A stretch of DNA of 64,000 bases from Candidatus Omnitrophota bacterium. Its GTDB lineage: Bacteria; Omnitrophota; Gorgyraeia; JABMRN01; RBG-13-46-9. The translations under genes were made by a program, and so were the position numbers. The stretch is taken from the NCBI GenBank assembly GCA_020346285.1, contig CP070780.1, positions 1,113,021 to 1,177,020 of the forward strand. The letters run 5' to 3'. The notes under the pieces are model-generated. The model did not search any database and had not been told where the DNA came from. It saw only the letters and a program-made list of their open reading frames with translations. Shown here in pieces: positions 18,131 through 60,062 of the stretch (its first letter is position 1; every line of letters begins with the position of its first letter).

Positions 18131-18194
18131 TAGCCGAAGCCGGCATAATCAAAAAGAGTTTTTATGATATAGATTTTAATCTTGGGAGACAGTA

Positions 18195-22549: not shown

Positions 22550-22590
22550 AAAGCAGAGATTTTTAATTGAAAAATTGGAGGGAAAAGTAT

Positions 22591-23562: not shown

Positions 23563-25762
23563 AAAAAAAATAAAGATAATCACGACACTAGGACCATCGA
23601 CGAACACCGAGAAGGATTTAAGAAACATAAAGGACAAAGGCGTTGATTTTGTACGAATCAATATGTCCCACTCCAATCTCAACGATTTAAAATATTTCAT
23701 AGATATTTCAAAGAAGATAGACATACCTTTTATCCTGGATACAGAGGGCTCGCAAATAAGGGCAGTTCAACTTGGCAGGGAAAAAATCGAATTTAAGGAA
23801 GGGGATATAATAAAAATTTATAATCGAACCATAGCAGAAAACAGGGAAAAGATATGCCTACAGCCGGGGTCTATTGTAGGGCAGTTGAAGAAAGGAGATC
23901 TGATATTCGTTGATTTTAATACGTTGGTCCTTAGGGTATCAGATATTTCTATGATTACCGACGGCTATATTTCCGCGATAGTTGTTACCAACGGAATGCT
24001 CGGAAACAACAAATCTGCTGTTATTGTTTCGGGAGAACAAAAACACTTTGGATTGCCCGTTTTAACCGAAAAAGACAGAAAATCTATTCAATTGGCTTTG
24101 AAAGAAGGGATAGGGCATATTGCCGTTTCTTTTGTAAGAAGGGGGAGGGACCTTGATGAGGTAAGAAAAACGACAAATAACACAATGCGTATCATCGCAA
24201 AAATAGAATCAAAAGAATCTTTGGAAAATATAGATGAAATAATTGAAAAAACAGACGCACTTTTGATTGACAGAGGAGATCTTGGTAAAGAGATTCCGAT
24301 TGAAAGAATACCCTTTATCCAGAAGGCTGTATTAAAAAAAGCGCACGAAAGACAAAAGCCGGTATTTATCGCAACAAACCTTCTCGAATCTATGGTTGAG
24401 AAGAAAAAGCCTACAAGGGCGGAAGTCAATGATGTTATAAATACCATTTTGGACGGGGCAGATGGCTTGGTTTTATCAGCCGAAACCGCTATCGGAAAAC
24501 ACCCCATGGGATGCATCAATATACTGAACAGGCTTATTAAATATTCAGATTCCGCAAGAAATCTTAACTATGTTAGTCGTTTTTCCGATTTTAGCACTGT
24601 TTCATTAATAAAACCGCATGGAGGCAGATTAATCGAAAGATTCGCCGATAAATTACCCGGCGATTCAGATAAATTGGTAAAAATAAAACTATCCGAAGAA
24701 CAGCAAATGGATGTTGAGCAGATTGCTGTCGGGGCATTTAGCCCTTTGGAAGGCTTTATGTGCAGAAATGATTTTCAGGGTGTCCTCGACAATATGCGGC
24801 TTGTAAGCGGGGTTGTATGGCCGATTCCAATCGTGCTTGATATTTCAAAAGAAGAGGCGAAAAAGATTTCTATCGATAATGAGGTAGCCTTAATCGGTGA
24901 TAAAGACGAAATTATGGCCATCCTTCATGTAAGGGATAAATACGATTTTGACAAAAAAGAGATAATAAATAAGTTATACTGCACGGACGACAAGAGGCAT
25001 CCCGGTGTAAAAATGGCAATGAAAATGAAGCCGATCTTAGTGGGCGGCGAAATTGATTTGGTAAAGAGAAGAGAGTCCGAATACAAGGAATATGAGCTTA
25101 CCCCAAGGCAGGTGCGAAAACTGTTCGAAGATCGAAATTGGATGAAGATTGCCGGTTTTCATACAAGAAACGCAATACACAGGGTGCATGAATTTATACA
25201 ATTAAAGGCGTTGGAAAAAGCGCATTGCGATGGGCTATTTATTCACCCTGTTATTGGAAAAAAGAAACAAGGCGATTTTAATATCAAATACATAATAGAG
25301 GCTTATAAAAAAATGATGAAAGATTTTTATCCAAAAGATAGCGTTGTCTTCGCAACATTTTCCACCTTTTCGCGATACGCGGGGCCTAGAGAAGCTATAT
25401 TTACTGCCTTATGCAGAAAGAATTTTGGATGCAGCCATTTTATTGTAGGAAGGGACCATACGGGTGTCGCGAATTATTATCACCCAAAGGCATCCCAACA
25501 GATTTTTGACAGATTTCCCGATTTGGAAATAAAACCCATAAAATTTGATAAAGTGTTTTATTCGAATAAACTTAACAAATATATTCATGGAAGTGACATT
25601 TGTAAAGAGGGGGATTTAGGAGAAGTGCATATAAACGCGACACAGGCAAGAAAGATGTTACAGGCCCTTGAAATGCCACCGGATTGGTTTATGAGGCCCG
25701 AAATAGCTTTAATAATTTTAAACGGACTAAAGAACAAGGAGGAAGTGTTTGTCAAAGAGTAA
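23546..25762 (+). CDS. fusion protein: pyruvate-kinase-like N-terminal domain + full ATP sulfurylase (sulfate adenylyltransferase)
   Basis: The first approximately 330 aa match pyruvate kinase blocks (IKIITTLGPST..E.L....KGVDFVRINMSHS; IAKIESKESLENIDEI...DALLIDRGDLG.EIP.ERIP..QK....K......PVFIATNLLESMV..KKPTRAEVNDV.N.ILDGADGLVLSAETA.GKHP). The remaining approximately 400 aa match ATP sulfurylase: the PUA-like segment HGGRLIER...LSEEQ..DVEQIAVGAFSPLEGFM, the HxxH motif GFHTRNAIHRVHE, and VGRDHTGV (GRDHAG). Confidence 0.8.
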   Translation: MDTRNRKKIKIITTLGPSTNTEKDLRNIKDKGVDFVRINMSHSNLNDLKYFIDISKKIDIPFILDTEGSQIRAVQLGREKIEFKEGDIIKIYNRTIAENREKICLQPGSIVGQLKKGDLIFVDFNTLVLRVSDISMITDGYISAIVVTNGMLGNNKSAVIVSGEQKHFGLPVLTEKDRKSIQLALKEGIGHIAVSFVRRGRDLDEVRKTTNNTMRIIAKIESKESLENIDEIIEKTDALLIDRGDLGKEIPIERIPFIQKAVLKKAHERQKPVFIATNLLESMVEKKKPTRAEVNDVINTILDGADGLVLSAETAIGKHPMGCINILNRLIKYSDSARNLNYVSRFSDFSTVSLIKPHGGRLIERFADKLPGDSDKLVKIKLSEEQQMDVEQIAVGAFSPLEGFMCRNDFQGVLDNMRLVSGVVWPIPIVLDISKEEAKKISIDNEVALIGDKDEIMAILHVRDKYDFDKKEIINKLYCTDDKRHPGVKMAMKMKPILVGGEIDLVKRRESEYKEYELTPRQVRKLFEDRNWMKIAGFHTRNAIHRVHEFIQLKALEKAHCDGLFIHPVIGKKKQGDFNIKYIIEAYKKMMKDFYPKDSVVFATFSTFSRYAGPREAIFTALCRKNFGCSHFIVGRDHTGVANYYHPKASQQIFDRFPDLEIKPIKFDKVFYSNKLNKYIHGSDICKEGDLGEVHINATQARKMLQALEMPPDWFMRPEIALIILNGLKNKEEVFVKE

Positions 25763-27542: not shown

Positions 27543-28214
27543 ATGAGTAGAGATTTAATTATAGCGGCTAAATGCGCCCCCCGGGAAGGGCATTTACGGG
27601 ATATTAAAAAAGCAGGATTGCAAGCAGTAGAGCTATATCTCTCGGAAGAGATTATGGAAAATCTGCCTAAGGTCATTGGACTGTGTAAAAAATTTCCATT
27701 TAGATATGCCGTTCACGCCCCTAATGCCGTATATAATCCGCGTAAATTAAGAAAATTGACAGAAGCGATCAATGCCGAAATAGCCGTTTTTCATAATGTT
27801 TATTGGGAGGATGAATGGAAGAGGGTCGCTAAAGCTTTTAAAGGCGTCAAGACTAAACTTTGCGTTGAAAATACATCTTCCACCCATGACTCGGTGAAAT
27901 TTATGAGAAGATATGGGTGGGGTAGGGCCCTGGATTTGGAACACGCGCAAATGGGATCTGCCGGTGTCTATGAAGAAGAGTTTATTACTGTTATGAAAGA
28001 GGCTGCCCATATCCACTTAACCGGTTACACCCATGGTTCGCAATTATGGCACACGCATATCCATCATTCACCGAGGCATAATTCATATTTATTGGATTTA
28101 TTAAGAAAAGCAAGATATTCAGGTTTTGTTGTCTCCGAAGCAAAAAAGTCACTCCAGACTTACGCAGAGTTTAAAAAGTTGAAAGAGTTTTATCAAAAAT
28201 GGAGAAATAAGTGA
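27543..28214 (+). CDS. xylose-isomerase-like TIM-barrel protein (sugar phosphate isomerase/epimerase family)
   Basis: 223 aa. The AVHAPN, ALDLEHAQ and HIHLTGY...HTHIHH segments resemble the metal-binding His/Glu/Asp pattern of the AP_endonuc_2/xylose-isomerase-like fold. This is a moderate-confidence call. Confidence 0.4.
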   Translation: MSRDLIIAAKCAPREGHLRDIKKAGLQAVELYLSEEIMENLPKVIGLCKKFPFRYAVHAPNAVYNPRKLRKLTEAINAEIAVFHNVYWEDEWKRVAKAFKGVKTKLCVENTSSTHDSVKFMRRYGWGRALDLEHAQMGSAGVYEEEFITVMKEAAHIHLTGYTHGSQLWHTHIHHSPRHNSYLLDLLRKARYSGFVVSEAKKSLQTYAEFKKLKEFYQKWRNK

Positions 28215-29059
28215 AGGTTCTCCTTACGGGGGTCACGGGCTTTATCGGCAGTTATTTTGTTTCTCAATGGAAAAATAACCCTTATGAGATAATTGGCATT
28301 GCCAGGCGTAATGTAAATCCTGATTTGCAGATACCGGTTGTGTATGCTGACCTGGCAGAGGGCGTTTCGTTAAAAGAGCCGGTAGATGTTATTGTCCATG
28401 CAGCAACTCAAGCATACGGACCAGACGTTCCGGCAGAGGCTTACATTCACAGTAATGTCGAAGGAATGCAGAAGCTTATTCAATATGCGCGGGATTTTAA
28501 TGTGCGAAAGTTCATCTATCTATCCAGCATGTCAATCTACGGAAAAATATCCGGTAATGTCGCAGACGAAAATACCCCCATTGTAAATCCCGGTATATAC
28601 GGTTTGAGCAAATATATGGGAGAATTGCTTCTTCGTGATGAAGCAGGGTGGCTAAATTCTGTGGTCTTACGTTTACCGGGCATTTTGGGTAAAAGCGCTA
28701 AAATTTGCTGGCTGGCCAAGGCGGCTAAAAAAATCAAGAGTGGCCAAGAGGTGTGGATATACAATCCGCAGTCGCCTTTTAACGCCACGATTCACGTCGC
28801 AGACCTCGAACGCTTTATTTCTCAGCTTATCGTTACAGAATTTAGCGGTTTTGAGATTGTTACGCTTGGATGCCGCCAGCCTATTACAATACGAGAGACG
28901 GCGGATTCTTTAAAAAAATATTTAAATTCAACCTCCAGGATACGGGTGAAAGACGCCAAGAAGAAGTGTTTCATTATTTCCACGGACAAGGCACGCAGAA
29001 TGAAATATAATCCCAGAACTGTTCGGGAAACTTTACGTGCTTATAGTAAGGAATGTTAA
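28211..29059 (+). CDS. NAD-dependent epimerase/dehydratase (extended SDR)
   Basis: MKVLLTGVTGFIGSYFVSQW is the Rossmann motif. YGLSKYMGE is the YxxxK motif. Confidence 0.8.
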   Translation: MKVLLTGVTGFIGSYFVSQWKNNPYEIIGIARRNVNPDLQIPVVYADLAEGVSLKEPVDVIVHAATQAYGPDVPAEAYIHSNVEGMQKLIQYARDFNVRKFIYLSSMSIYGKISGNVADENTPIVNPGIYGLSKYMGELLLRDEAGWLNSVVLRLPGILGKSAKICWLAKAAKKIKSGQEVWIYNPQSPFNATIHVADLERFISQLIVTEFSGFEIVTLGCRQPITIRETADSLKKYLNSTSRIRVKDAKKKCFIISTDKARRMKYNPRTVRETLRAYSKEC

Positions 29060-29072
29060 GAGGGGGTTTAAT

Positions 29073-29759
29073 ATGCGAGAATTTAATGCGTTAAAGGGTT
29101 ATCCGCAACCGAAAGGGCCGCGTTATGTCGGAGCTGACATCAGAACAATTAAGAGCAGAATTATAGCTTCGTATCGCGATGAACGGTATTATGACGGAGA
29201 CCGCAACCACGGTTATGGAGGGTTTAAATATGACGGCCGATGGAAGAAAATAGCACAATCAATGTTTAAGGATTATGGGTTAACCGAGAACTCGGCCTTA
29301 CTCCAGATAGGGTGTGAAAAAGGGTTTCTCCTGCATGATTTTCATGAGCATTTCCCGAATATGAAAATTAGAGGAGCCGAAATGTCCGATTACGCTATTT
29401 CGCATTCCATGCCGTCGGTAAAAAAATGGATTGTAAAGATGGACAATTATACCAAGCTTCCCTTCGAAAGCGGAGAATTTGATTTTGTCATTGCTATAGG
29501 GGTAGTTTATGCCTTAACCTTAAGGGATGCTATATCTTGTCTTCGCGAAATTCAGAGAGTAGGAAAGGGCAAAAGCTTTATAACCCTGGGCGCTTATAAA
29601 GACGAACGGGGAGAAAAGCTTTTTAAGAGTTGGACGGTATTAGGTGCCACCATACTTCATGTAAATGAGTGGCCCGAGGTTTTAAAGGAAGCCCGTTACA
29701 CGGGCGATTATCACTTTATGACCGACGAATATCTAAATTTGGCAGAGAAAAACGGATGA
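29073..29759 (+). CDS. class I SAM-dependent methyltransferase
   Basis: Motif I is LLQIGCEKGFLLHDF. Motif II-like is EFDFVIAIGVVYAL. I prefer the ATG at 29073 after a GAGGGGG RBS. Confidence 0.7.
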   Translation: MREFNALKGYPQPKGPRYVGADIRTIKSRIIASYRDERYYDGDRNHGYGGFKYDGRWKKIAQSMFKDYGLTENSALLQIGCEKGFLLHDFHEHFPNMKIRGAEMSDYAISHSMPSVKKWIVKMDNYTKLPFESGEFDFVIAIGVVYALTLRDAISCLREIQRVGKGKSFITLGAYKDERGEKLFKSWTVLGATILHVNEWPEVLKEARYTGDYHFMTDEYLNLAEKNG

Positions 29760-30769
29760 AAAATCAGGATTTTTTAATAAAAATATTGGATAATAATAAA
29801 ATATTAAACCTAGAGTTTTATAAGAAATTATTTTTAATCAGAAGGAGTGAAGAGAAGATTATCGAGCTTTATCCTGAAAATGAAATGAGAATGCCAATGC
29901 ATATGTCTATGGGAGGAGAGGCAATAGCAGTTGGGGTTTGTCATGCTTTAGGAATAAAAGGCCAGGTTTTTGGAAGCTACAGATCCCATGCTATATATTT
30001 AGCTAAGACGCAAGATACGAATAATTTTTTTGCTGAGATATATGGAAAAACCACATCTTCATTAAAAGGAAAATGCGGCTCTATGCATTTGTGCGCACCT
30101 GATTTTGGGTTTATGGGAGCTTCAGCAATTGTAGCAAGTATAATTCCTGTAGCCTGTGGAACAGCTTTTGCAAATAAGAGAAAAAATAATGGTAAAATTG
30201 TTAGCGTATTTTTTGGAGATGGGGCCGTTGATGAGGGTAATTTTTGGGAGAGCTTGAATGTTGCCTCTCTTATGAAACTGCCGATTTTATTTGTCTGTGA
30301 AGATAACGCTCTTGCGGTTCATACTCCAAGGCACCAAAGGCAGGGTTATGATTCTATCGTTAGTATTGTCTCTAAGTTTAACTGTAATGTTCTTGAAGAG
30401 AGCACTACCGATACAGAAGTTATTTATAGAAAAACTTGCCAGGCTATTGAGTTAATTAGAACAACCCAGATGCCCTGTTTTTTGTATTTAAGATATTATA
30501 GGTACTTGGAGCATGTTGGTACTAAGGAAGATTTTGATGCCGGCTACCGCTCAAAAGAAGAATTTGAAAAATGGCATAAAAAAGACCCTGTAAATTTACA
30601 GAGGAAAAAGCTTTTAAGATTTGGGATAGAAGAAGAACAGATAAGAAAACTTGAAGTAGAGATAGAAGGTCGCATTGAGAACAGTATAAGGTTAGCCCAA
30701 AAAGCACCCTTCACTGAAATTAGCGAATTACACAGAGATGTCTTTTATGAAGAAAATAAGAAAGATTAG
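29756..30769 (+). CDS. thiamine-diphosphate-dependent dehydrogenase E1 component alpha-subunit homologue
   Basis: MHMSMGGEAIAVGVCHALGIKGQVFGSYRSHAIYLAK...; FFGDGAVDEGNFWESLNVASLMKLPILFVCEDNALAV is the TPP-binding GDG...N motif. The start overlaps the methyltransferase stop (ATGA). Confidence 0.8.
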   Translation: MKNQDFLIKILDNNKILNLEFYKKLFLIRRSEEKIIELYPENEMRMPMHMSMGGEAIAVGVCHALGIKGQVFGSYRSHAIYLAKTQDTNNFFAEIYGKTTSSLKGKCGSMHLCAPDFGFMGASAIVASIIPVACGTAFANKRKNNGKIVSVFFGDGAVDEGNFWESLNVASLMKLPILFVCEDNALAVHTPRHQRQGYDSIVSIVSKFNCNVLEESTTDTEVIYRKTCQAIELIRTTQMPCFLYLRYYRYLEHVGTKEDFDAGYRSKEEFEKWHKKDPVNLQRKKLLRFGIEEEQIRKLEVEIEGRIENSIRLAQKAPFTEISELHRDVFYEENKKD

Positions 30770-31799
30770 TTATTGTCAGGCATTGAATGAAGCAATGCGG
30801 CAGGAAATGGAAAGAGATCCAAATATATTTGTATATGGACTAGGTGTGCCTGACCATAAAAGAGTATTCACAACTACTGCGGGGTTGGTGGAGAAATTTG
30901 GTAAGGAAAGATGTTTTGATACCCCACTGTCTGAAGATACTATGACCGGGTTCGGATTGGGCGCGGCCATTAGCGGAATGAGGCCTATTCATATCCATAT
31001 GCGAGTTGATTTTCTTCTTCTAGCAGTAAATCAGCTTGCTAATATGGTTTCTAATTACAGATATGCAACAGCGGGGAAATTAAGAGTCCCTTTGCTAATA
31101 AGGGCTGTTGTGGGCAGGGGACGGGGACAATCTTTTCAGCATAGTAAGACTATGCATTCTATCTTTGCGCACATCCCTGGATTAAAAGTTGTTTTGCCCA
31201 CTACTCCCAGGGATGCCAAAGGGCTACTTATAGCAGCTATCAGGGATGAGAATCCAGTAATTTTTATAGAACATAGATGGTTATATTTTGCGGTTGACGA
31301 AGTTCCAGAACTACCATATACCATCCCTTTGGAAGAAGCTAATATTCTGCGTTCAGGCAGAGATGTTACAGTGGTGGCAACTTCGTGGATGAATGTAGAG
31401 GCCTTAAAAGCTGCACAGGTTCTTGAACGAAAGCACAAGATAAGCGTAGAAGTGATCGACGCCAGAATAGTAGCTCCCTTCAATGATAAGCTTATTGTTC
31501 ACTCCGTCAATAAGACAGGACATTGTATTGTGGCGGACAATGATTGGCTTGATTGCGGATTTAGTGCAGAAGTAGCTGCTCGAGTTTCAGAGAAGTGTTT
31601 CAGTCAATTAAAATCCCCTGTGCAGCGAATAGGATTTGCTCCCACTCCCTGCCCTTGCACAAAGTCTTTGGAGAATTGTTTTTATCCAAACGCAATTGAC
31701 ATTATAAAAACTATAGAATCAAAGTTAAACTTGGAAGAGGCAGATTTGTCTAATGAAGACTTTTATGGCTTTGAAAATAAGTTCAACGGTCCTTTTTAA
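30738..31799 (+). CDS. thiamine-diphosphate-dependent dehydrogenase E1 component beta-subunit homologue
   Basis: Transketolase-like Pyr domain (GFGLGAAISGMRPIHIHMRVDFLLLAVNQLANMVSNYRYATAGKLRVPLLIRAVVGRGRGQSFQHSKTMHSIFAHIPGLKVVLPTTPRDAKGLLIAAIRDENPVIFIEH) plus a C-terminal domain. Confidence 0.8.
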   Translation: MSFMKKIRKISYCQALNEAMRQEMERDPNIFVYGLGVPDHKRVFTTTAGLVEKFGKERCFDTPLSEDTMTGFGLGAAISGMRPIHIHMRVDFLLLAVNQLANMVSNYRYATAGKLRVPLLIRAVVGRGRGQSFQHSKTMHSIFAHIPGLKVVLPTTPRDAKGLLIAAIRDENPVIFIEHRWLYFAVDEVPELPYTIPLEEANILRSGRDVTVVATSWMNVEALKAAQVLERKHKISVEVIDARIVAPFNDKLIVHSVNKTGHCIVADNDWLDCGFSAEVAARVSEKCFSQLKSPVQRIGFAPTPCPCTKSLENCFYPNAIDIIKTIESKLNLEEADLSNEDFYGFENKFNGPF

Positions 31800-35540: not shown

Positions 35541-36368
35541 ATGCAAGAAAAAGTGCAAATGCTAAAGAAAAAAGCAAGGTGGGTGCGAACCAAGGTTCTA
35601 AATACCATAGCCAGACTAAGAAAGGGTCATCTCGGAGGTACCTTATCCTGTACGGACCTTTTGGTGGCCTTATATTACGGGAAAATCATGAGATTCGATG
35701 CTGCTAATCCAAATTGGAGCGAAAGAGACAGATTTCTTATAGGGAAAGGGCATGCCCATCTTGCCTTATATTATATATGGACTGACCTCGGATTTTTTGA
35801 TGTTCGCAAATTAGAAGAATATGGAACCGACGGTAGCTCATTAGGTTTTCAACTCGATCGTAACATTCCGGGTTCAGAATATAATACAGGTTCATTAGGA
35901 CATGTGATTGGAATCGGAGCTGGAATGGCATTAGCCGCAAAGATGGATCGCAAGGCCTATAAGACCATTGTTCTTGTCGGTGATGGGGAATGTGATGAAG
36001 GTTCTATCTGGGAAGCGGTCATGTTTGCGAGCCGATATCGATTGAATAATTTAATGACCATTGTTGATAGAAATCAGGCAACAGTCATTGAAAATAGAGT
36101 GGAAGACGATGGTTCCGGGAGATTAGAGGAAAAGTTCAAAATGTGCGGTTGGGAGTCTATAACTATCAACGGGCACTCCTTTGAGCAGATACTGTCCGCT
36201 TTCACTGGATTGGAAAAATTCAATAGGCCCCTGGCGATAATTGCCGATACGGTGAAGGGTAAAGGGGCCTCTTTTTTGGAGCAAGGGGCTAAATGGCACC
36301 ATTTGGTTCCTTCTGCAGAAGAATTTGATAGGGTAATTAGGGAGTTTGAATTGGAGGCTGAAACGTGA
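35541..36368 (+). CDS. transketolase, N-terminal (TPP-binding) subunit of a split transketolase
   Basis: HLGGTLSCTDLLVALYY...; GSLGHVIGIGAGMALAAKMDRKAYKTIVLVGDGECDEGSIWEA is the GDG...E TPP motif. It is 275 aa. Confidence 0.85.
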   Translation: MQEKVQMLKKKARWVRTKVLNTIARLRKGHLGGTLSCTDLLVALYYGKIMRFDAANPNWSERDRFLIGKGHAHLALYYIWTDLGFFDVRKLEEYGTDGSSLGFQLDRNIPGSEYNTGSLGHVIGIGAGMALAAKMDRKAYKTIVLVGDGECDEGSIWEAVMFASRYRLNNLMTIVDRNQATVIENRVEDDGSGRLEEKFKMCGWESITINGHSFEQILSAFTGLEKFNRPLAIIADTVKGKGASFLEQGAKWHHLVPSAEEFDRVIREFELEAET

Positions 36369-37300
36369 AAAATGCAATTGATTTTAGAAATGCTTTTTTT
36401 GATAACTTATATGACATAGCTATAAAAAATAAGGAGGTTGTTTTCATAACATCTGATATGCCTGCAGAAAGCCTCGTCAAATACAATAAGGATTTCCCTG
36501 ACCGATTCATTAATAGCAGGGTTGCTGAACAGAACACGGTGAGTGTAGCAGCGGGGCTTGCACTAAGCGGAAAAAAAGTTTTCATTTATGGTATGTTACC
36601 TTTTGTAACAATGCGTTGTTATGAACAGATTAAGGTTGATATTTGTAGTATGAATTTACCCGTTACTCTTATAGGGCTGGGAGCAGGATTATCCTTTGAT
36701 GTGGATGGGCCAACCGCCCATGGAGTTATTGACATTGCTATTATGCGCTCACTACCTGAAATGACCATTCTCAATCCTTCCGACCCTATTACGGCATCTG
36801 CCTTTGCAGAAACTGCATACAGTAGTTGCACTCCCACCTATATTCGGCTGCACAAAGGTAGAACCCCATCTATTTATGATAATGCTACAGATTTCTCAGA
36901 TGGATTCTCTATACTTAAAAATGGCGATGATCTTTGTATTATTACAACAGGGGTCATGCTGCATACTGCTCTTCGCATAAGAGATGAACTAAAAAGGTAT
37001 TCTCTTGATGCGGGTGTTATTGATTTATATCAATTGAAACCAATTAAAGAAGACTTGTTCCTTAAAGCGTTAACTAACCATAAAAAAATAGTGACCATTG
37101 AAGAGCATTCACTTATTGGGGGACTTGGCAGTATCATCAGTGAAATCATAACCGACAATCAGCGGCCGATTTCACTCAAGCGCATTGCACTTAAAGATGA
37201 ACAGTGTTTTCATTATGGTAAGAGAGAGTGGCTACGCGAGGTGTATAAAGTTGATGCAGATAGTATTGTTAAGCAAATTATAGCATGGGAGAAGAAGTAG
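36365..37300 (+). CDS. transketolase, C-terminal (Pyr + C-terminal domain) subunit
   Basis: FITSDMPAESLVKYNKDFPDRFINSRVAEQNTVSVAAGLALSGKKVFIYGM... It is 311 aa and overlaps the N-terminal subunit by 4 nt. Confidence 0.85.
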   Translation: MKNAIDFRNAFFDNLYDIAIKNKEVVFITSDMPAESLVKYNKDFPDRFINSRVAEQNTVSVAAGLALSGKKVFIYGMLPFVTMRCYEQIKVDICSMNLPVTLIGLGAGLSFDVDGPTAHGVIDIAIMRSLPEMTILNPSDPITASAFAETAYSSCTPTYIRLHKGRTPSIYDNATDFSDGFSILKNGDDLCIITTGVMLHTALRIRDELKRYSLDAGVIDLYQLKPIKEDLFLKALTNHKKIVTIEEHSLIGGLGSIISEIITDNQRPISLKRIALKDEQCFHYGKREWLREVYKVDADSIVKQIIAWEKK

Positions 37301-37301
37301 C

Positions 37302-38372
37302 ATGGGCCTTGTATATGCAAAAATGAAAATATTCCATTTTAAAGACAAAGTAGATTCTCTGTCAATAACAAAAGATGAAATATTGCCTCCCATACAGATA
37401 AGAATCAAACCGACGAATGTCTGCAATCATAACTGTTCCTATTGCTCATACAAGATAGATAACGTACAGATCGGTAAGGACATAGTGGCGAAGGACCGAA
37501 TCCCCAGGGAAAAGATGATGGAAATAATGGATGATATTATTGACATGCAGGTTGAGTGCGTTACCTTTAGCGGGGGAGGGGAGCCGTTCTGCTATCCTTA
37601 TTTGCTTGAGGCCGTTAAGAGGTTGTCCAGTACGCCTGTCAAATTCGCGACCCTGACGAACGGCTCAAAATTAGACGGAGAACTGGCAGAGGTCTTTGCC
37701 CACAAGGCCACATGGCTTAGGGTTTCCATAGATGGGTGGGATGACGAAAGCTATTCTGCCTACAGGGGCGTACCCAAGGGGGAATTCACAAAGGTAATCA
37801 GAAACATAGAGAATTTCAAGAAATATAGAGGAAAATGTTATTTGGGAGCCTGTATAGTTATCGATAAGAAAAACGCCTCTCATGTGTATGAATTGATAGC
37901 GCGGTTAAAAGATAGCGGTATTGACAGCGTCAAGATTGCGCCGTCTATTCTGAGTAATAGCAGTACGGAAATCAATCTATATCACAAACCCATATTTGAA
38001 CAAGTTAAAAGAGAAATTGCTAAAGCATCAGATGAACTTTCAGAGGAAGTGTTTGAGATATTCGACTCATATCATAGCCAGCTCGAAGGCTTTGAAAAAG
38101 GATATACCTGGTGCCCATATCTTCAGATATTGCCTGTTATCGGCGCAGACCTTAATGTATATTCCTGCCACGACAAGGCATATAATCTCGATGAAGGGCT
38201 TATGGGTTCCATTAAAAATCGCCGATTCAAAGATTTTTGGCTTTCGGACAAGAATAAATTTTTTAAAATAGACCCCTCTCGCCATTGCAACCACCATTGT
38301 GTGGTAGATATGAAAAATAGACTTATCCTGGACTATTTGGATGCAGATAAAGGACATTTAGGGTTTGTTTAA
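37302..38372 (+). CDS. radical SAM protein with SPASM/twitch-like C-terminal Cys cluster
   Basis: IRIKPTNVCNHNCSYCSY is a Cx3Cx2C motif. The C-terminus reads C.YLQ....YSCHD...RHCNHHC. Confidence 0.75.
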   Translation: MGLVYAKMKIFHFKDKVDSLSITKDEILPPIQIRIKPTNVCNHNCSYCSYKIDNVQIGKDIVAKDRIPREKMMEIMDDIIDMQVECVTFSGGGEPFCYPYLLEAVKRLSSTPVKFATLTNGSKLDGELAEVFAHKATWLRVSIDGWDDESYSAYRGVPKGEFTKVIRNIENFKKYRGKCYLGACIVIDKKNASHVYELIARLKDSGIDSVKIAPSILSNSSTEINLYHKPIFEQVKREIAKASDELSEEVFEIFDSYHSQLEGFEKGYTWCPYLQILPVIGADLNVYSCHDKAYNLDEGLMGSIKNRRFKDFWLSDKNKFFKIDPSRHCNHHCVVDMKNRLILDYLDADKGHLGFV

Positions 38373-41264: not shown

Positions 41265-42374
41265 ATGATATCAGATAAAGATTTATATAGCCAGAATAAA
41301 TTGCTACAACATTTAGAGAGATTACTTATGTGGAAGAGGGAAGGATTCGCGCACCCTATTTTTATAGACCTTGATCTTACGAATAGATGCAACAATAGAT
41401 GCCCTTTATGCGTTACTTCTCAAAATAGAGATCAAACAACAATGCCTTTCGGGCTTGCGAAAGATGTTATTTCACAACTTAAAAGTATGAATGTAAAGGC
41501 CATTCTGTTAGTCGGAGGCGGTGACCCTACCTGTCACCCTAATCTGGGGGAGGTAATAAGATTCATAAAACGAAAAGGTTTAGAAGTCGCGATCAATACC
41601 AACGCATATAAGATATCAAAAGATACTATAAAGACTATAGTTCGCTGTTGCGCATGGGTAAGAATAAGTTTAGACGCTGGCACCCCGGCAATTTATAAAA
41701 AAACACACGCTATGAATAAAAAAGCATTTTATCAGGTTGTGGACAACATATCTAATTTAGTTGACGAAAAACGAAAGCGTAAACGTAATATAGTTCTCGG
41801 AGCTACGTATCTAATCGGCCCCCATACTATAGAGGGGATATATGATGCAGCGCGGTTATGCAAAAAAATAGGCCTTGATAAGTTAAGATACAGGTTGTTT
41901 GAGCCGGAGATTGACGGTACAGAAATCAGCCTATCCAAGGACGAAAGAAAAAAAGCCGCGCCTGTAAGGCCGTGGAGCTTCACAAAAAAAGAAAAAGAAA
42001 ACATGTTTAACGAGCTGAAGAGGTGTAAAGAATTTGAAGATGAATATTTTTCATTCTCCTATTCCGAAGATAGATTTGAAGCAGTAATAAAAGGAAAATC
42101 ACGTAGTTGTAAAAGGTGCCATATCACCCACTTTATTACGTCCATAACCCCTGACCTCAAAGTATACCCTTGTCCTTATCTAAAAAACATTGAAAAATAT
42201 TGTTTAGGAGATCTGACAAAAGAGAATTTTAAAGAAATATGGTTTTCTGATAAACGGAAGAAAACTTCTGAAAAAATAAATGTCGAAAGGTGTTTCCACT
42301 CTTGCAAATATGAAAAACAAAACGAATTATTGCACAATATAAAAAAAGCAATGTTTCATCCGAATTTTTTATAA
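41265..42374 (+). CDS. radical SAM protein with SPASM-like C-terminal Cys-rich domain
   Basis: IDLDLTNRCNNRCPLCV is the radical SAM motif. The C-terminus reads CKRCHITHF...YPCPY...YC...C.HSCKY. Confidence 0.75.
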   Translation: MISDKDLYSQNKLLQHLERLLMWKREGFAHPIFIDLDLTNRCNNRCPLCVTSQNRDQTTMPFGLAKDVISQLKSMNVKAILLVGGGDPTCHPNLGEVIRFIKRKGLEVAINTNAYKISKDTIKTIVRCCAWVRISLDAGTPAIYKKTHAMNKKAFYQVVDNISNLVDEKRKRKRNIVLGATYLIGPHTIEGIYDAARLCKKIGLDKLRYRLFEPEIDGTEISLSKDERKKAAPVRPWSFTKKEKENMFNELKRCKEFEDEYFSFSYSEDRFEAVIKGKSRSCKRCHITHFITSITPDLKVYPCPYLKNIEKYCLGDLTKENFKEIWFSDKRKKTSEKINVERCFHSCKYEKQNELLHNIKKAMFHPNFL

Positions 42375-42392
42375 AAGGTGTATAAGAGGTGC

Positions 42393-42443
42393 ATGAAAAC
42401 CCGGGATTTTTTACGAAAAATTTTGGCAATGTTAACCGTTCCC
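42393..42443 (+). repeat. 51-nt direct repeat (left copy): a duplicated 5' gene fragment
   Basis: ATGAAAACCCGGGATTTTTTACGAAAAATTTTGGCAATGTTAACCGTTCCC has 47 of 51 identities to 43333-43383, the true start of the gene at 43333. It sits in an intergenic spacer and forms a 30-codon dead-end ORF. Confidence 0.7.
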
Positions 42444-42474
42444 ACAACCGAAATGTTACCAAACAGGAGAAATT

Positions 42475-43230
42475 ATGAAAGACAAAATGAGTGATTTTAG
42501 GAGCAGCAGCCCACAGGAGCTTGCTATCAGAAGAAAATTCTTGGAACATTATAAAAAAAGTCCCATTCCTGATGATCAGCTCTTTGTAAACCTCGGGCTT
42601 TTTCTGAACACCAAAAATTTATCTCGAATCTTATTTATGAATGATATATACAAACAAATTATTGATGTTCAAGGGATTATTGTTGAATTTGGTACAAGAT
42701 GGGGTCCAAACCTGTCACTTTTTGCTGCTTTGCGAGGAATTTATGAGCCATATAACATACAGAGAAAAATAGTTGGATTTGATACGTTTGAAGGATTTCC
42801 AGGCCTATCAGAAAAAGACAGCTCTAGTGATATGATGAAAATAGGTAATCTTTCCTGTTCAGAAGGATATGTTGATTATCTTACAAAGGTGATGGAATTC
42901 CAAGAAGCTGATAATCCTGTCTCACACATCAAGAAATTTGAGATAAGAAAGGGAGATGCAAACATTGAAGTGGTGAAATATCTTGAAGAAAACCCGGAAA
43001 CGATTATTGCTTTGGCTTTTTTTGATTTCGACATTTACGAACCGACTAAAAATTGTTTGCAAGCTATAAAACCCCACTTGGTAAAAGGGAGTTTATTGTG
43101 TTTTGATGAATTGAATGCCCATAGTGCCCCGGGAGAAACTATAGCATTGAAAGAGGTATACGGACTTAATAATATAAAGTTACGACGGCCCCGCTACACC
43201 ACGAGAGTATCGTACTTTATTATAGAATAA
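42475..43230 (+). CDS. TylF/MycF-family (macrocin-O-methyltransferase-like) SAM-dependent sugar O-methyltransferase
   Basis: QGIIVEFGTRWGPNLSLFAAL...KIVGFDTFEGFPG matches the TylF family core (G.(I/V)VE.G(V/T).(R/W)G.S......GRtvw.yDsFeGlP). Confidence 0.75.
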   Translation: MKDKMSDFRSSSPQELAIRRKFLEHYKKSPIPDDQLFVNLGLFLNTKNLSRILFMNDIYKQIIDVQGIIVEFGTRWGPNLSLFAALRGIYEPYNIQRKIVGFDTFEGFPGLSEKDSSSDMMKIGNLSCSEGYVDYLTKVMEFQEADNPVSHIKKFEIRKGDANIEVVKYLEENPETIIALAFFDFDIYEPTKNCLQAIKPHLVKGSLLCFDELNAHSAPGETIALKEVYGLNNIKLRRPRYTTRVSYFIIE

Positions 43231-43238
43231 AGCGTTAC

Positions 43239-43332
43239 TATAACCCTGGGCGCTTACAGGGACGAACGGAGAGAAAGGAAACGATTGTCACTTTATGACC
43301 GCCGAATATCTAAATTTGAAGGAGAAAAACAG
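43239..43332 (+). pseudogene. relic of a methyltransferase 3' end (homologous to the end of the gene at 29073-29759), internally deleted
   Basis: 43239-43278 matches 29579-29618, and 43288-43332 matches 29711-29755, both at high identity. About 90 nt of intervening sequence is missing and no upstream gene body is present. Confidence 0.6.
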
Positions 43333-43383
43333 ATGAAAAGCCGGGATTTTTTACGAAAAATATTGGCAATGTTGACCATTCCC
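43333..43383 (+). repeat. 51-nt direct repeat (right copy), part of the functional gene start
   Basis: ATGAAAAGCCGGGATTTTTTACGAAAAATATTGGCAATGTTGACCATTCCC is the partner of 42393-42443. A related start (ATGAAAAATCAGGATTTTTTAATAAAAATATTGG) occurs at 29756. Confidence 0.7.
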
Positions 43384-44505
43384 GCAGTACTTGTAATACG
43401 GATATTGCGGCCGTTCGTGCTAATCCGTTTTGGAAAACTCCTTAGCGATAGAATAGGTCATTTTGCCATCAATACAGAAGAATATCTGTGCGAGAAGGAT
43501 GCGGGCATGTACGGCCGGCGAATCTTTGATATTTTTTATACCGTTAAACCAATTTGCAATCAACAGTTGAAAAAGATGTGGAGCCGCATACTGCACATTT
43601 CCAAGATTGCGCATTTTTTTGATATTGCCAATAGATGCTTACCGGGATATGAGGACCATTCGGTTTCCTTGCTAGGGCTTATGGATGTTCATGGTCTCTT
43701 TGTGCGTACCGCGCCGCATCTTTCTTTTACCCCAAAAGAGGAACGTATGGGGCTTGATGGGCTCCGGAAGATGGGCATACCTGAAGGCGTTCCTTTTGTC
43801 TGTTTTCATGCACGCAATCAGGCTTACCTGGAAACCGTGTATCCGAAAGCGGATTGGCACAGTCACAGCCACCGTAATTCGGACATTTATAATTATATCC
43901 CGGCAGTAGAAAAATTAGTAAATAGGGGGTATTTTGCTATTAGGATGGGTGCTGTTGTAAAAAAGAAATTGAATAACAATAACCCAAGGATTATCGATTA
44001 TGCCGTAAATCACAGGACAGATTTTCTTGACATATACCTCTTGGCTAAATGCAAATTTCTTATTAATAACGAGGCAGGTATTCATGGCGTATCCGTGATT
44101 TTCAGGAGACCGGTGGTTGAGGCAAATATCGTCCACATTGACCCCCCAAATCTCATCAAAGGGGAAAATAGTTTATTTATCTTAAAAAAATTATGGTCGC
44201 GAAGAAAAGGTCGCTTTTTGACTTTTAAAGAAATACTCAACACCGGCATAGGAAAATTTTCTACAGCCCAACAATATGAAAAGTCCCAAATAGAGTTAAT
44301 AGAGAACACACCGGAAGAAATCAGCGCTGTTTCCATGGAGATGGATGAGCGATTGAAGAATACATGGCAGACGACCGAAAAAGATGAGCAGTTGCAGCAG
44401 CAATTTTGGGCAATACTTAAGCCAATCTGCCCTAATGAAAATGGAATAATTTTTCCACGACTTGGCGCAGAATTTTTGCGCCAGAATAAAGAATTGTTAA
44501 AGTAG
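43333..44505 (+). CDS. hypothetical protein (about 390 aa), possibly a glycosyl/sugar-modifying transferase; no recognisable motif
   Basis: The ORF has a consistent reading frame. I prefer the ATG at 43333 (AAGGAG RBS) over the caller's TTG at 43285. Function cannot be assigned from sequence alone. Confidence 0.4.
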   Translation: MKSRDFLRKILAMLTIPAVLVIRILRPFVLIRFGKLLSDRIGHFAINTEEYLCEKDAGMYGRRIFDIFYTVKPICNQQLKKMWSRILHISKIAHFFDIANRCLPGYEDHSVSLLGLMDVHGLFVRTAPHLSFTPKEERMGLDGLRKMGIPEGVPFVCFHARNQAYLETVYPKADWHSHSHRNSDIYNYIPAVEKLVNRGYFAIRMGAVVKKKLNNNNPRIIDYAVNHRTDFLDIYLLAKCKFLINNEAGIHGVSVIFRRPVVEANIVHIDPPNLIKGENSLFILKKLWSRRKGRFLTFKEILNTGIGKFSTAQQYEKSQIELIENTPEEISAVSMEMDERLKNTWQTTEKDEQLQQQFWAILKPICPNENGIIFPRLGAEFLRQNKELLK

Positions 44506-44519
44506 GAAGGAATATAAGA

Positions 44520-46280
44520 TTGAAGGCTTTAACTTTTATTCGTGATATCTTCAGAAAATATCCCACATTAGTTACAGTTACAACGGTACTGGTAGTTTTT
44601 GTTAGTGTAGTTGAGGCGGCTTGTCTTTTTACCGTTGGCCCGCTTGTTGATGTTTTAATTCATCCTGCTCTCGAGAACATCAGCCCTCTTACCCAAAAGG
44701 TAATGAACGTTATGCAATTTTTTGATATTCCACTGGTATTAAAAAGCTGCTTAATTGTTTTTATTGTATTTGTCATTTTAAGCAGCGCTTTGCGTATCTT
44801 GGTGCGGTATTCTATTTTGAGTATTAAATATATCGTGCTTCGCGATCTTACGGTTGGAACATTTAGTGATTTTTTCCACGCGAGGTGGTATTTTTTTAGC
44901 AGCAGTGGACAGGGCAAACTTTTAAATACTTTCCTGCGCGAACTTAATATTGTAGCCGAGGCCTTCAGGGCAGTAGCATATTTTTTTGCGGGGACCTTGC
45001 AATTAATTTTTTATCTGGCAATTCCGTTTTATATCTCCTGGCAAGTGACGAGCATTAGCCTTATGAGCGCAATTTTACTTTCCTGCCCCTTTATTTTACT
45101 CGGGAAAATCTGCTATTGGTTAGGTAAATTGAATACCGAGACAAGCAATCGGCTAGCCGCCCTCATACAGGAGAACTTTACATTAGCCAAAGTTGTTCTG
45201 GGCTTTGGCAAGCAAGAAAAAAGCATTGATAATCTTGCTTCTACTTTTGATGTTCATCGCAAAATAACCGTTAAGAGCCAGACAATTAACTTAGCCATAC
45301 CAATTCTTTATCGCCCGCTTGGCGTGGCGGTATTAGCTGCGGCCATTATTTCGGCGCAATGGTTCAAAATTCCCATTTCAGAAATGGCAGTATTGCTATT
45401 GGCATTGCTGCAGGTTGTTGTCTCTATAGGTAATTTGATAATGCGAAAAAATTCACTGGATAACTCCCTTCCCAGCTATGAACAGGTCAATGATTTACAA
45501 CGTAAAGCAAAAGAATGGAAGCAAGCCACGGGCGGTAAAATATTTTCGGGGTTTAATAAAGAAATAATTATTGAAGGTGTTTCGTTTGCCTACCCGGGGC
45601 ATGAGCCGGTGTTAAAGGACATTAATGTTAAAATTCCGAAGGGAAAAATGATTGCCTTTGTTGGTAAATCAGGCGCGGGAAAATCAACGCTGATTGACAT
45701 GATTATGGGATTTAACGAATTTATAACCGGGCGAATTACATTTGATGGCGTGAATATCGAAGAATTTAACGTCAGTTCATATCGTAAGCGCATCGGTTAC
45801 GTACCTCAGGACAGCATTCTTTTTAATATGACTATTAGAGATAACTTGCTCTGGGCCAAGGAAGATGCTACCCAAGAGGAGATCAAGTATGCTTGCCGCC
45901 AGGCAAACGCAGATGAGTTTATAGAAGCATTTTCGCATGGGTACGATACATTAGTGGGGGACCGTGGTATTCGCCTGTCAGGTGGCCAGTGCCAAAGGGT
46001 AGCATTGGCCAGAGCGATATTAAGGAGACCCGAGCTTCTTATTCTGGATGAAGCTACCAGTTCTCTGGATAGCCGTTCCGAACGATTGATCCAAGAGGCC
46101 ACTGAAAATATTGCCAAGGAAACCACGGTTATTGTCATTGCGCATCGCCTTTCCACGATTGTAAATGCGGATTATATGTATGTAATGGAAAAAGGAAGGA
46201 TAGTCGAACAAGGGATATATTCTGACCTGGTTAAAATGAACGGCCATTTTAACCGTATGGTAAAACTTCAGGTATTGTAA
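44520..46280 (+). CDS. ABC transporter, fused permease/ATPase exporter (MsbA/PglK-like)
   Basis: The N-terminal half has six predicted TM segments. The ATPase has Walker A (GKSGAGKST), the ABC signature (LSGGQCQRVALARA) and Walker B (ILILDEATSSLD). Confidence 0.85.
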   Translation: MKALTFIRDIFRKYPTLVTVTTVLVVFVSVVEAACLFTVGPLVDVLIHPALENISPLTQKVMNVMQFFDIPLVLKSCLIVFIVFVILSSALRILVRYSILSIKYIVLRDLTVGTFSDFFHARWYFFSSSGQGKLLNTFLRELNIVAEAFRAVAYFFAGTLQLIFYLAIPFYISWQVTSISLMSAILLSCPFILLGKICYWLGKLNTETSNRLAALIQENFTLAKVVLGFGKQEKSIDNLASTFDVHRKITVKSQTINLAIPILYRPLGVAVLAAAIISAQWFKIPISEMAVLLLALLQVVVSIGNLIMRKNSLDNSLPSYEQVNDLQRKAKEWKQATGGKIFSGFNKEIIIEGVSFAYPGHEPVLKDINVKIPKGKMIAFVGKSGAGKSTLIDMIMGFNEFITGRITFDGVNIEEFNVSSYRKRIGYVPQDSILFNMTIRDNLLWAKEDATQEEIKYACRQANADEFIEAFSHGYDTLVGDRGIRLSGGQCQRVALARAILRRPELLILDEATSSLDSRSERLIQEATENIAKETTVIVIAHRLSTIVNADYMYVMEKGRIVEQGIYSDLVKMNGHFNRMVKLQVL

Positions 46281-57426: not shown

Positions 57427-58359
57427 TTGATGATGATTGTTGAAAAAAAACAAAAAGATATAGAACGGTATGTTTTTAATTGGTCTTATTTTAACTCAGC
57501 AAGAGAAGGCTTTAGGCATATACTGGAAACCGAGGGACTAAACGGCAGGAAAATATTAGTTCCTCTTTACGTAGGATATAGTACGAAGGAAGGGTCTGGT
57601 GTTTTTGAACCGATAAGAGAAGCTAAAATGCAGTATGTTTTTTATAATCTGGATGGATGCCTCAATATTAATCTGGAAGATTTGAAGAGAAAAATTAAGG
57701 AAAATCAAAACAATGTTTTATTAATAATACACTATTTCGGATTTACAGATGGAAACCTAAAGAAAATAAAACAATATGCCAAGGAACACGGTATGATAAT
57801 TATTGAAGATTTTGCCCAGGCTTTTTTTACATTTTGGTTAAATCCCATAATTGATTTTGATTATGGTATATTCTCTATACATAAATTGTTTCCTGTAGAT
57901 TCAGGAGGCATGGTAATCGGTAGAAAAAAAATAAAGAGCAGCATTAATAACGGCAATATTAAGTATAATTTATTTAACTATAACATTAAAGAGATAATAC
58001 AAAGACGTATAGAAAATTATAAGTATATCTTGTACAGGATTAAAAAAATGACCGGCTTATATAAAATCACTGTTCTCAAAGAAAAATTGCAGGGGGTTGT
58101 CCCCCATAGTTTTCCGATTTTACTTCCCGACCGTAATATTAGGGATCAGTTGTATTTTCAAATGAATGAAGAAGGTTATGGAGTGATAAGCTTATATCAT
58201 ACATTAATAGATGAAATAGAGAGTCCTTTTACCATTGAGCATAAAATTTCAAGCAGGATATTAAACCTTCCTGTTCATCAGGATGCTGAAAAAGAGGACT
58301 TGGGCAATATGATCGATAGGATGTTTACGATTATCAATGACTATAATAAAAATGTATAG
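57427..58359 (+). CDS. DegT-like PLP-dependent enzyme (aminotransferase/dehydratase fold), N-terminally short
   Basis: GRKILVPLYVGYS...; LIIHYFGFTDGNLKKIKQYAKEHGMIIIEDFAQA...IDFDYGIFSIHKLFPVDSGGMVI follows the DegT core order, including the candidate PLP lysine (SIHK). It lacks the first approximately 50 aa of typical members. Confidence 0.45.
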   Translation: MMMIVEKKQKDIERYVFNWSYFNSAREGFRHILETEGLNGRKILVPLYVGYSTKEGSGVFEPIREAKMQYVFYNLDGCLNINLEDLKRKIKENQNNVLLIIHYFGFTDGNLKKIKQYAKEHGMIIIEDFAQAFFTFWLNPIIDFDYGIFSIHKLFPVDSGGMVIGRKKIKSSINNGNIKYNLFNYNIKEIIQRRIENYKYILYRIKKMTGLYKITVLKEKLQGVVPHSFPILLPDRNIRDQLYFQMNEEGYGVISLYHTLIDEIESPFTIEHKISSRILNLPVHQDAEKEDLGNMIDRMFTIINDYNKNV

Positions 58360-59061: not shown

Positions 59062-60062
59062 ATAGAATTTTTATAATAGCGGAAGCGGGTATTAATCATA
59101 ACGGAAGCATTGTAAATGCAAAGAAAATGATAGATGGGGCGTCCGAGGCCGGCGTAGATGCAGTAAAATTTCAGACCTTTAAGGCGGAGAAGGAGATAAG
59201 TAAATATGCGCCCAAGGTTGAATACCAGAAAAGAACTACTGGCGCTGAAGAATCTCAGCTTGATATGGCTAAGAGATTTGAATTAAAGCAGAGCCAGTTT
59301 AAAGAGCTTTATAATTACTGTAAAGAGAAAAGAATTATTTTTTTATCCTCCCCATCCGATTTAGAGAGTATAGATTTTTTAATAGAACTTGAGCTCGATA
59401 CTTTAAAAATTCCTTCAGGAGAAATAACCAATCTGCCCTTTTTAAGGAAGATAGGAAGTTTAGGAAAGAAAGTTATAATGTCAACTGGGATGGCAGATTT
59501 AGAAGAGATAAAAGATGCTTTAGATATTTTAACCGAGGCAGGAACTCCCAAAAAAAATATAACTATTTTACATTGCAATACAGAGTATCCCACTTCTATG
59601 GAGGACGTAAATCTCTTAGCTATGCTTACAATTAGAGATACTTTTAAAGTAGAAGTTGGATATTCTGACCATACACTTGGAATAGAAGTTCCAATTGCAG
59701 CCGTGGCTTTGGGGGCAGCTATTATAGAAAAGCATTTTACACTCGATAGAAACATGGAAGGACCCGATCATAAAGCATCTTTAGAACTCGATGAACTAAA
59801 AGCTATGGTGAAGGCAATAAGAAATATAGAGAAAACTCTCGGCAATGGGATTAAAAAGCCTTCACCTTCAGAGATTAAAAACATAATACTAGTTCGTAAA
59901 AGCATAGTAGCAACAAGACCTATCAAAGAAGGAGAGATTTTTACAGTGAAAAACATTACAACTAAAAGACCGGCAACAGGAATAAGTCCAATGGAGTGGG
60001 ATAAACTACTTGGGACAACTGCCAAAAGAGATTTTAAGAAAGATGAGGTAGTGGAGTTATGA
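59058..60062 (+). CDS. NeuB-family nonulosonic acid synthase with C-terminal SAF domain (NeuB/LegI/PseI-like)
   Basis: IFIIAEAGINHNGSIVNAKKMIDGASEAGVDAVKFQTF; YSDHTLGIEVPIAAVALGAAIIEKHFTLDR; the C-terminal SAF domain begins KSIVATRPIKEGEIFTVKNITTKRP. Confidence 0.85.
   Translation: MNRIFIIAEAGINHNGSIVNAKKMIDGASEAGVDAVKFQTFKAEKEISKYAPKVEYQKRTTGAEESQLDMAKRFELKQSQFKELYNYCKEKRIIFLSSPSDLESIDFLIELELDTLKIPSGEITNLPFLRKIGSLGKKVIMSTGMADLEEIKDALDILTEAGTPKKNITILHCNTEYPTSMEDVNLLAMLTIRDTFKVEVGYSDHTLGIEVPIAAVALGAAIIEKHFTLDRNMEGPDHKASLELDELKAMVKAIRNIEKTLGNGIKKPSPSEIKNIILVRKSIVATRPIKEGEIFTVKNITTKRPATGISPMEWDKLLGTTAKRDFKKDEVVEL

Follow-up and report, generated by a model that had tools for sequence, protein, structure and literature searches.

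In a 64-kb window (the whole stretch of DNA analyzed) from a metagenome-assembled genome (MAG) of Candidatus Omnitrophota, the start of a TIGR04372-family glycosyltransferase (GT) gene occurs three times, and a fragment of a class I S-adenosylmethionine (SAM)-dependent methyltransferase (MT) gene stands directly before the intact GT gene (Table 1). The whole window is a glycan-biosynthesis supercluster in which nearly all genes run in a single direction. Our results support a common descent of the repeats, whose positions mark junctions of old recombination or rearrangement within a modular glycan cluster. We consider it quite probable that the repeats and the MT relic are now inert scars, left behind when an ancestral pair of translationally coupled genes, MT-GT, was rearranged on at least two past occasions.

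We compared the window with itself by BLASTN (word size 11, E ≤ 1e-3), and exactly three non-self matches were found in the 64 kb, all of them already listed in an initial annotation of this DNA. The first joins the start of the GT gene (R2, 43333-43386) to an orphan copy (R1, 42393-42446) in the gap upstream of the preceding gene (54 nt, 49/54 identities, 91%, E = 9e-14). The second joins 29705-29789 (copy A) to 43282-43366 (copy B; 85 nt, 87%, E = 2e-22), and the third joins 29579-29616 to 43239-43276 (38 nt, 89%, E = 1e-6). The identities reported in the initial annotation were reproduced, namely 47/51 for 42393-42443 against 43333-43383, 35/40 for 43239-43278 against 29579-29618, and 40/45 for 43288-43332 against 29711-29755, the last being a stretch that BLASTN joins with the following gene start. 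Furthermore, a degenerate 34-nt motif of the ATG-proximal copies matched only at 29756, 42393, and 43333 in the window, with no match in 100 dinucleotide-preserving shuffles. Additional short repeats, such as 42996-43013 against 43277-43294 (15/18 identities, at the internal joint of the relic), were judged to be chance-level two-copy matches.

The repeats form two direct pairs, one within the other. The outer repeat is the MT-GT junction of ~211 nt (29579-29789), which recurs with an internal deletion at 43239-43366; this pair brackets 13.6 kb from the gene for a pyruvate dehydrogenase (PDH)-type E1 alpha subunit through a gene for a CalS11-like sugar O-methyltransferase, a bracketing that the initial annotation had missed. 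The inner repeat is GT codons 1-18 at R1 and R2, with a spacing of 940 nt, and encloses the CalS11-like gene and the MT relic. The longest perfect run is 21 nt between R1 and R2 and 16 nt between A and B. Over the 34 nt shared by all three copies of the GT start, nucleotide identity is 82-94%: R1 and R2 differ at 2 positions, and the copy at 29756 differs from them at 5 and 6. The changes between R1 and R2 are both nonsynonymous and synonymous. In each of the three copies, the ATG is intact, a purine-rich motif precedes it, and the homologous part contains no stop.

The GT gene is where the repeated start comes from. GT homologues from many phyla have in common an N-terminal hydrophobic segment (consensus GG...LLRK....L...LA.PVVL.VR.LRP), and the 54-nt repeat is native GT coding sequence because residues 8-18 of the window GT (RKILAMLTIPA) align with this segment. 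R2 is therefore the source sequence of all three copies, and the direction of copying was from GT. A blastx search with the gap containing R1 returned GT residues 1-17 (E = 4e-7). The dead-end open reading frame (ORF) that opens with R1, previously given as 30 codons, has 33, and its stop (42492-42494) overlaps the region where the following gene starts (ATG at 42475 and 42487).

The third copy does not merely lie in front of the E1-alpha gene, as had been annotated, but forms its start: 34 nt of the GT start are fused in frame, so that the start codon and the first 11 codons (MKNQDFLIKIL) are GT-derived, a capture that had also gone unrecorded. The nearest E1-alpha homologue (69% identical, at locus L083) begins MKRIELNLELYKK, without an N-terminal extension, and the window protein begins MKNQDFLIKILDNNKILNLEFYKK. 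Because nucleotide homology to the GT start stops at 29789 and nucleotide homology to L083 begins at 29803, E1-alpha must have captured the ATG and first 11 codons of GT. No other in-frame ATG or GTG is present between 29790 and 29803, and the captured start is the sole annotated one.

The relic in front of GT lacks a start codon and the first ~169 MT codons, and its frame is broken. The initial annotation had put its internal deletion at ~90 nt; the deletion is real, but in its exact form 88 nt gave way to 5 nt, and the net loss (83 nt) shifts the frame, which is why the two pieces of the relic stand in different frames. The relic (43239-43332) is non-functional as a methyltransferase gene, and its second piece carries the AAGGAG Shine-Dalgarno motif of GT and the ATGA overlap of MT stop and GT start. 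This second piece is closer to the MT of the window itself (40/45) than to the MTs of other genomes (77-81%), so that the relic and the intact MT come from the same lineage. The first piece also matches the MT gene of locus L084 (91% over 33 nt).

To place these fragments, we searched 80 loci around GT homologues in GTDB representative genomes with all window proteins (the source genome was not among the loci returned), and the contexts of the closest MT homologues were examined as well. MT homologues at 66-81% identity are abundant. In another Omnitrophota MAG (L011), an MT orthologue (79%) lies directly upstream of a TIGR04372 GT with an ATGA stop/start overlap; at L085, the GT gene begins 4 nt before the end of the MT orthologue (81%), again with ATGA; and in a Rhodospirillaceae MAG (L025), the GT ATG follows directly after the stop of the MT orthologue (69%). 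One small gene separates MT from GT at L084 and possibly at L086. Both junction copies in the window keep the ATGA overlap (AACGGATGAAAAA at 29756 and AACAGATGAAAAG at 43333). The order MT-GT-ABC exporter is recurrent (L011 and L085), and the order GT-ABC was seen at L003, L005, L011, L013, L041, L043, and L073. The adjacency in other genomes and the common ATGA overlap show MT-GT to be a conserved, translationally coupled module, and because MT orthologues sit directly upstream of TIGR04372 GTs elsewhere, the fragment at 43239-43332 is a remnant of an ancestral MT-GT pair. This pair is split in the present genome, with the intact MT at 29073 and a frameshifted relic before GT. The arrangement also points to TIGR04372 glycosyltransferases working with this methyltransferase family.

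The gene that now stands in the position of MT had been called TylF-like. That label (PF05711, macrocin O-methyltransferase) falls below the Pfam gathering threshold (20.5 bits, the cutoff being 23; E = 3e-4), although a few homologues of the product do carry precomputed PF05711 matches. In contrast, the match to CalS11 (PDB 3tos/4gf5), the thymidine diphosphate (TDP)-rhamnose 3'-O-methyltransferase of calicheamicin biosynthesis, is strong (phmmer E = 1e-61, residues 8-237 of 251 on 12-242 of 257), so that a CalS11-like nucleoside diphosphate (NDP)-sugar O-methyltransferase, with substrate and regiospecificity as predictions, is the better founded description. The closest relative, at L082, is 81% identical in amino acids and 78% in nucleotides, and the nucleotide homology is confined to 42466-43228, i.e., the ribosome-binding site (RBS) and the ORF. 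This relative is likewise found just upstream of a TIGR04372 GT, and has neither an MT relic nor an upstream ORF (uORF). A CalS11-like gene is rare near GTs (1 of the 80 GT loci, that match being just 29% identical). Genes are packed extremely tightly in the window, and just seven intergenic gaps across the 64 kb are >50 nt; the two gaps flanking the CalS11-like gene are among these seven, and both are relic-filled. The gene has its own AGGAG Shine-Dalgarno motif.

Table 1. Features at and around the two junction regions, in window coordinates
Feature	Position	Strand	Description
SDR gene	28211-29059		Precedes MT
MT, class I SAM-dependent methyltransferase	29073-29759	+	Pfam Methyltransf_11/25/31; intact counterpart of the relic
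MT internal segment	29579-29616	+	Codons ~170-182; counterpart of relic piece 1
Junction copy A	29705-29789	+	Last 51 nt of MT, ATGA stop/start overlap, 34 nt of GT 5' end
PDH-type E1 alpha subunit gene	29756-30769	+	PF00676, E = 3e-48
E1 beta gene	30738-31799		Adjoins E1 alpha
Radical SAM/SPASM gene	41265-42374	+	Pfam Radical_SAM and SPASM; stop 18 nt upstream of R1
R1	42393-42446	+	Orphan GT codons 1-18; begins exactly at ATG; own GAGGTG Shine-Dalgarno-like motif upstream
Dead-end ORF	42393-42494	+	33 codons, R1 plus 15 unrelated codons; translation MKTRDFLRKILAMLTVPTTEMLPNRRNYERQNE, then stop
CalS11-like NDP-sugar O-methyltransferase (predicted)	42475-43230	+	Gene formerly labeled TylF-like
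MT relic piece 1	43239-43276	+	MT codons ~170-182; reads ITLGAYRDER
MT relic piece 2	43282-43332	+	MT codons 212-228, HFMTAEYLNLKEKNR, then stop; frame differs from piece 1
TIGR04372-family GT	43333-44505	+	NCBIfam TIGR04372, E = 8e-68; first 54 nt are R2
MsbA/HepA-like ABC exporter	44520-46280	+	Directly after GT

We propose the following history for the scars. In an older event, MT would have been separated from GT by 13.6 kb, with ~210 nt of their junction duplicated; in a later event, the CalS11-like gene would have been put in the old position of MT and the first 54 nt of GT duplicated. The MT-GT split probably predates the duplication around the CalS11-like gene because R1 and R2 differ least (2 against 5-6 positions over 34 nt). 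The joints would lie at 29789/29803, 42446/42466, 43230/43239, and 43276/43282, and at least one of them would be illegitimate, with the other joint possibly within the GT homology, as in homology-facilitated illegitimate recombination (HFIR). They could have arisen by illegitimate or homology-facilitated recombination with DNA from within the lineage or from a close relative of it; alternatively, a duplication could have been followed by a deletion. Selection would have kept in-frame or non-disruptive outcomes, and the fragments would be without present function except for carrying ribosome-binding sites.

Several points weigh against this history. A step driven by homologous recombination cannot be told from illegitimate joining, and the order, number, and mechanism of the events are a reconstruction. 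The scars of past recombination read into this locus by the initial annotation stand, and module shuffling driven by homologous recombination, as described there, is one of the possible routes to them. The searched collections contained no closely related genome, the nearest GT homologue being 58% identical, and the ancestral arrangement in this lineage, the donor, and the recipient were accordingly not observed directly. The degenerate 34-nt junction motif had no match in JGI metagenome contigs, and the radical SAM gene beside R1 had no relative of >19% identity in the searched collection. Base composition gives no indication of a foreign origin of the CalS11-like gene: its GC content of 0.36 compares with 0.396 for the window, and the neighboring radical SAM gene and E1-alpha are equally at 0.36. 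Finally, the intact ATG, purine motif, and open frame in all copies leave some retained function possible.

Such a function can be specified. The origin of the copies would still be recombination, but the GT start would have been kept as a translation-initiation module, the E1-alpha start being coupled to the MT stop and the uORF coupling ribosomes into the CalS11-like gene. The features common to the three copies, the dependence of E1-alpha on its captured start, and the overlap of the uORF stop with the ATG region at 42475/42487 speak for this explanation. However, an AGGAG of its own precedes the CalS11-like gene, and the relative of this gene at L082 has no uORF. The predicted folding of the start regions is ordinary (-7.7 to -10.6 kcal/mol against a window median of -8.0), the repeated sequence turned up in no other genome, homologues of GT do not conserve the N-terminus, and the differences between R1 and R2 include nonsynonymous as well as synonymous ones. 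We therefore regard retention for function as unlikely.

The ends of genes might also be what is left of full-length modules. An ancestor with two or three full GT paralogues and two MT copies could have lost the gene bodies by deletion, with only the ends left. Tandem TIGR04372 paralogues do exist (L047, L048, L069, L077, and L080), and a second GT paralogue (P0119, 54% identical) is encoded elsewhere on the same contig. Yet the tandem paralogues in other genomes have only 24-40% protein identity to the window GT, at which no DNA similarity would be expected, whereas the copies here are 82-94% identical in nucleotides. This scenario also requires several independent deletions, each ending within the first 11-18 codons, and near-identical direct paralogues of 1.2 kb would be expected to recombine out the genes between them. 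Decay of paralogous modules is thus a rather unlikely source of the copies.

The initial annotation had suggested that recombination between the repeats could generate glycan diversity or phase variation. In that case, exchange between direct repeats would time and again remove the CalS11-like gene or the 13.6-kb block and give cells with differently methylated or branched glycans. The repeats are indeed direct and in frame; an exchange between R1 and R2 would leave an intact GT directly after the radical SAM gene, and one between A and B would restore an intact MT-GT pair like that of L011 and L085. The usually quoted minimum for efficient RecA-dependent exchange in E. coli is ~23-27 bp, and the perfect runs in the window (21 and 16 nt) are at or below it. 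Deletion between direct repeats is irreversible, copies that diverge by 9-13% are not what frequent exchange or gene conversion would be expected to leave, and only the full arrangement was found in Logan contigs carrying these exact proteins. We scanned the ~59 ORFs of the window against Pfam and the ten ORFs around both junctions additionally against NCBIfam, and found no integrase, invertase, or transposase family, i.e., no recombinase or invertase gene in the 64 kb. The only inverted repeat in 42300-43450 is an 18-nt pair (83%) inside coding sequence, with none of the terminal or cassette type. Given these short, diverged, direct repeats and the single arrangement, a currently active switch is very unlikely. 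The same low probability attaches to a fuller version, in which the nested repeats would be a two-level in-frame deletion system (R1 × R2 losing the O-methyltransferase, and A × B losing the 13.6-kb branched-sugar block and restoring MT-GT) and the captured GT start a plug-in translation-initiation adaptor. If it held, the population would continually yield cells with simpler surface glycans, and inserted genes would inherit coupling to the upstream gene.

An artefact of assembly or binning (a chimeric contig or a collapsed repeat), which the initial annotation had named as an outcome that would overturn its reading and for which the metagenome-assembled source is the one argument, is extremely improbable: the repeats are short (38-85 nt) and 9-13% diverged and would not collapse, ORFs are intact across all junctions, the MAG contig (1.43 Mb; 1,432,423 bp) carries an NCBI protein entry 100% identical to the window GT, and two Logan contigs from run SRR14739669 (an assembly separate from that of the MAG, although the run may be the MAG's own source) match the window at 100%, one over 41476-44216, spanning R1, the CalS11-like gene, the relic, and R2, and the other over 28506-30897, spanning the MT/E1-alpha junction.

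Scars of past rearrangement, the reading we favor, have precedents in O-antigen clusters, such as the tyv remnant beside abe in the S2 module of Yersinia pseudotuberculosis and the wzy remnants in Salmonella groups B1/D1 (PMC5399914 and PMC3715488; wzy in PMC3715488), and relic-filled atypical gaps are the signature that Reeves and colleagues use to recognize derived O-antigen modules. There, as here, a truncated non-functional fragment of a sugar-pathway gene lies beside a gene of alternative function at a place where related clusters have the intact gene, the derived form stands out by its unusual intergenic gaps, and no mobile element is needed. All three marks of a gene-remnant junction in a polysaccharide cluster (a fragment unable to encode the protein, an intact orthologue in that position, and an alternative gene with atypical gaps) are present, and the locus belongs to this known kind of recombination junction; it is neither a new mechanism nor a new class of element. 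Unlike in the O-antigen remnants, the duplication here extends to the junction with the first codons of GT, so that three copies exist, the unrelated E1-alpha gene now uses one of them as its start, and the host is an uncultivated Omnitrophota bacterium for which sister clusters are lacking for comparison. The triple copy of a gene start, its capture by an unrelated gene, and the host phylum are what is distinctive here.

HFIR has been proposed for the sequential displacement of type VI secretion system (T6SS) effector-immunity modules in Vibrio cholerae and for orphan Rhs 3' ends (PMC5361080, which cites de Vries and Wackernagel 2002 and Prudhomme et al. 2002 for the original work). In such arrays, new genes are inserted beside a conserved anchor gene, old pieces are pushed aside as orphans, and joining takes place within homologous sequence at one end and outside it at the other; the window may show the same pattern. 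R2 is continuous with the full GT, a possible anchor, and R1 breaks off at codon 18, which leaves 19 nt to the RBS of the CalS11-like gene. The leftovers here differ from those of HFIR arrays in being 5' gene ends and a fragment of a biosynthetic gene, not immunity genes.

Campbell-type integration by a single crossover, or tandem duplication followed by deletion, yields direct repeats flanking the inserted or duplicated DNA. R1/R2 and A/B, with their respective spacings of 940 nt and 13.6 kb, resemble such products. Unlike in Campbell-type integration, the homology is just 54-211 nt, and there is no circular intermediate and no plasmid or phage gene. Integron cassettes and phase switches share with this locus a single promoterless gene bracketed by repeats in an operon-like array, but here there is no integrase or invertase and no attC-like imperfect palindrome, and the repeats are direct coding 5' ends. 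An integron gene cassette was accordingly rejected (no integrase, and the sole inverted repeat in 42300-43450 is intra-coding), as were a transposon insertion (no transposase, no terminal inverted repeats, and a diverged duplication of 54 nt in place of a target duplication of 2-14 bp), a recombinase-driven switch or shufflon (no recombinase in the ~59 ORFs, direct repeats, and one arrangement in the available assemblies), and a RecA deletion hotspot (repeats too short and diverged, with 87-91% identity and the two short perfect runs, by a threshold taken from E. coli). An explanation by promoters or terminators was also set aside, the promoter-like and terminator-like sites around 41800-43800 being at shuffle expectation. 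No tRNA gene was found in the window, and no Rfam family matched it at the gathering threshold.

The locus is a clean sequence-level record of the assembly of a very large glycan cluster in a candidate phylum about which little is known: a coupled MT-GT pair was split, another sugar methyltransferase stands in the old place, and an unrelated enzyme gene carries the start codon of GT. It offers an example of operon remodeling without mobile elements. For annotation, the 33-codon ORF and the fragment at 43239-43332 should be flagged as remnants, and the E1-alpha start as chimeric.

Some features of the GT itself deserve mention. The figure of 58% for its nearest homologue is from a search among 5.8 billion proteins, an exact-protein look-up of the window GT returned no record, and no mention of TIGR04372 was found in the literature searched. 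The window GT has an N-terminus 25-45 residues shorter than most homologues. When 43333-43420 is compared with 9812-9960 of L011, its start, MKSRDFL, resembles that of the Omnitrophota L011 GT, MSKYDDFL, which then has ~37 extra residues before the common LLRK motif; the window GT may therefore have lost N-terminal residues through a deletion in frame. The NCBI record of the CalS11-like protein starts at the second ATG (247 aa) and bears the name 'crotonobetainyl-CoA--carnitine CoA-transferase', which looks misannotated because the strong CalS11 match indicates a sugar O-methyltransferase. Just upstream of R1, an 11-nt tandem duplication (TATAAAAGGTG / TATAAGAGGTG, 42370-42391) runs across the stop codon of the radical SAM gene and the Shine-Dalgarno-like motif; it could record slippage at the left joint, or be fortuitous (TRF score 37; four rows of this kind occur in 17 kb).

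The window as a whole encodes two NeuB homologues, a UDP-GlcNAc 2-epimerase, cytidylyltransferases, many DegT aminotransferases and SDR epimerases, five B12-binding radical SAM and five radical SAM/SPASM enzymes, sulfotransferases, and glycosyltransferases, with the ABC exporter of Table 1. Four thiamine pyrophosphate (TPP)-dependent systems are present (two acetolactate-synthase-like enzymes, the PDH-type E1 alpha/beta pair, and a split transketolase). This repertoire for sugar modification is exceptionally elaborate for a contig of ~1.4 Mb. An unusual 738-aa ORF (23546-25762, + strand) fuses a pyruvate-kinase barrel (PF00224, E = 1e-73) with PUA_2 and ATP-sulfurylase domains; it adjoins a sulfotransferase-like gene (22567-23562) and presumably supplies sulfate activation for glycan sulfation. 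Two DegT-family ORFs (6300-7307 and 57427-58359) cover the Pfam profile only partially (positions 4-251 and 79-185 of 360, respectively) and may be truncated or decaying aminotransferase genes, i.e., further rearrangement scars. The gap at 18131-18194 may hold another gene-end remnant: its blastx match to the C-terminal end of the UDP-GlcNAc 2-epimerase (60059-61234) is marginal (E = 0.007; 15 aa at 60%). In five other loci (L003, L004, L005, L007, and L047), we observed a conserved block of split transketolase, MT (32-37% identical to the window MT), and radical SAM gene, the last being 68-70% identical to window 37302-38372 in L003-L005 and L007. In the window, the transketolase pair abuts the radical SAM gene without an MT between them (35541-38372), so that block order also varies among lineages.

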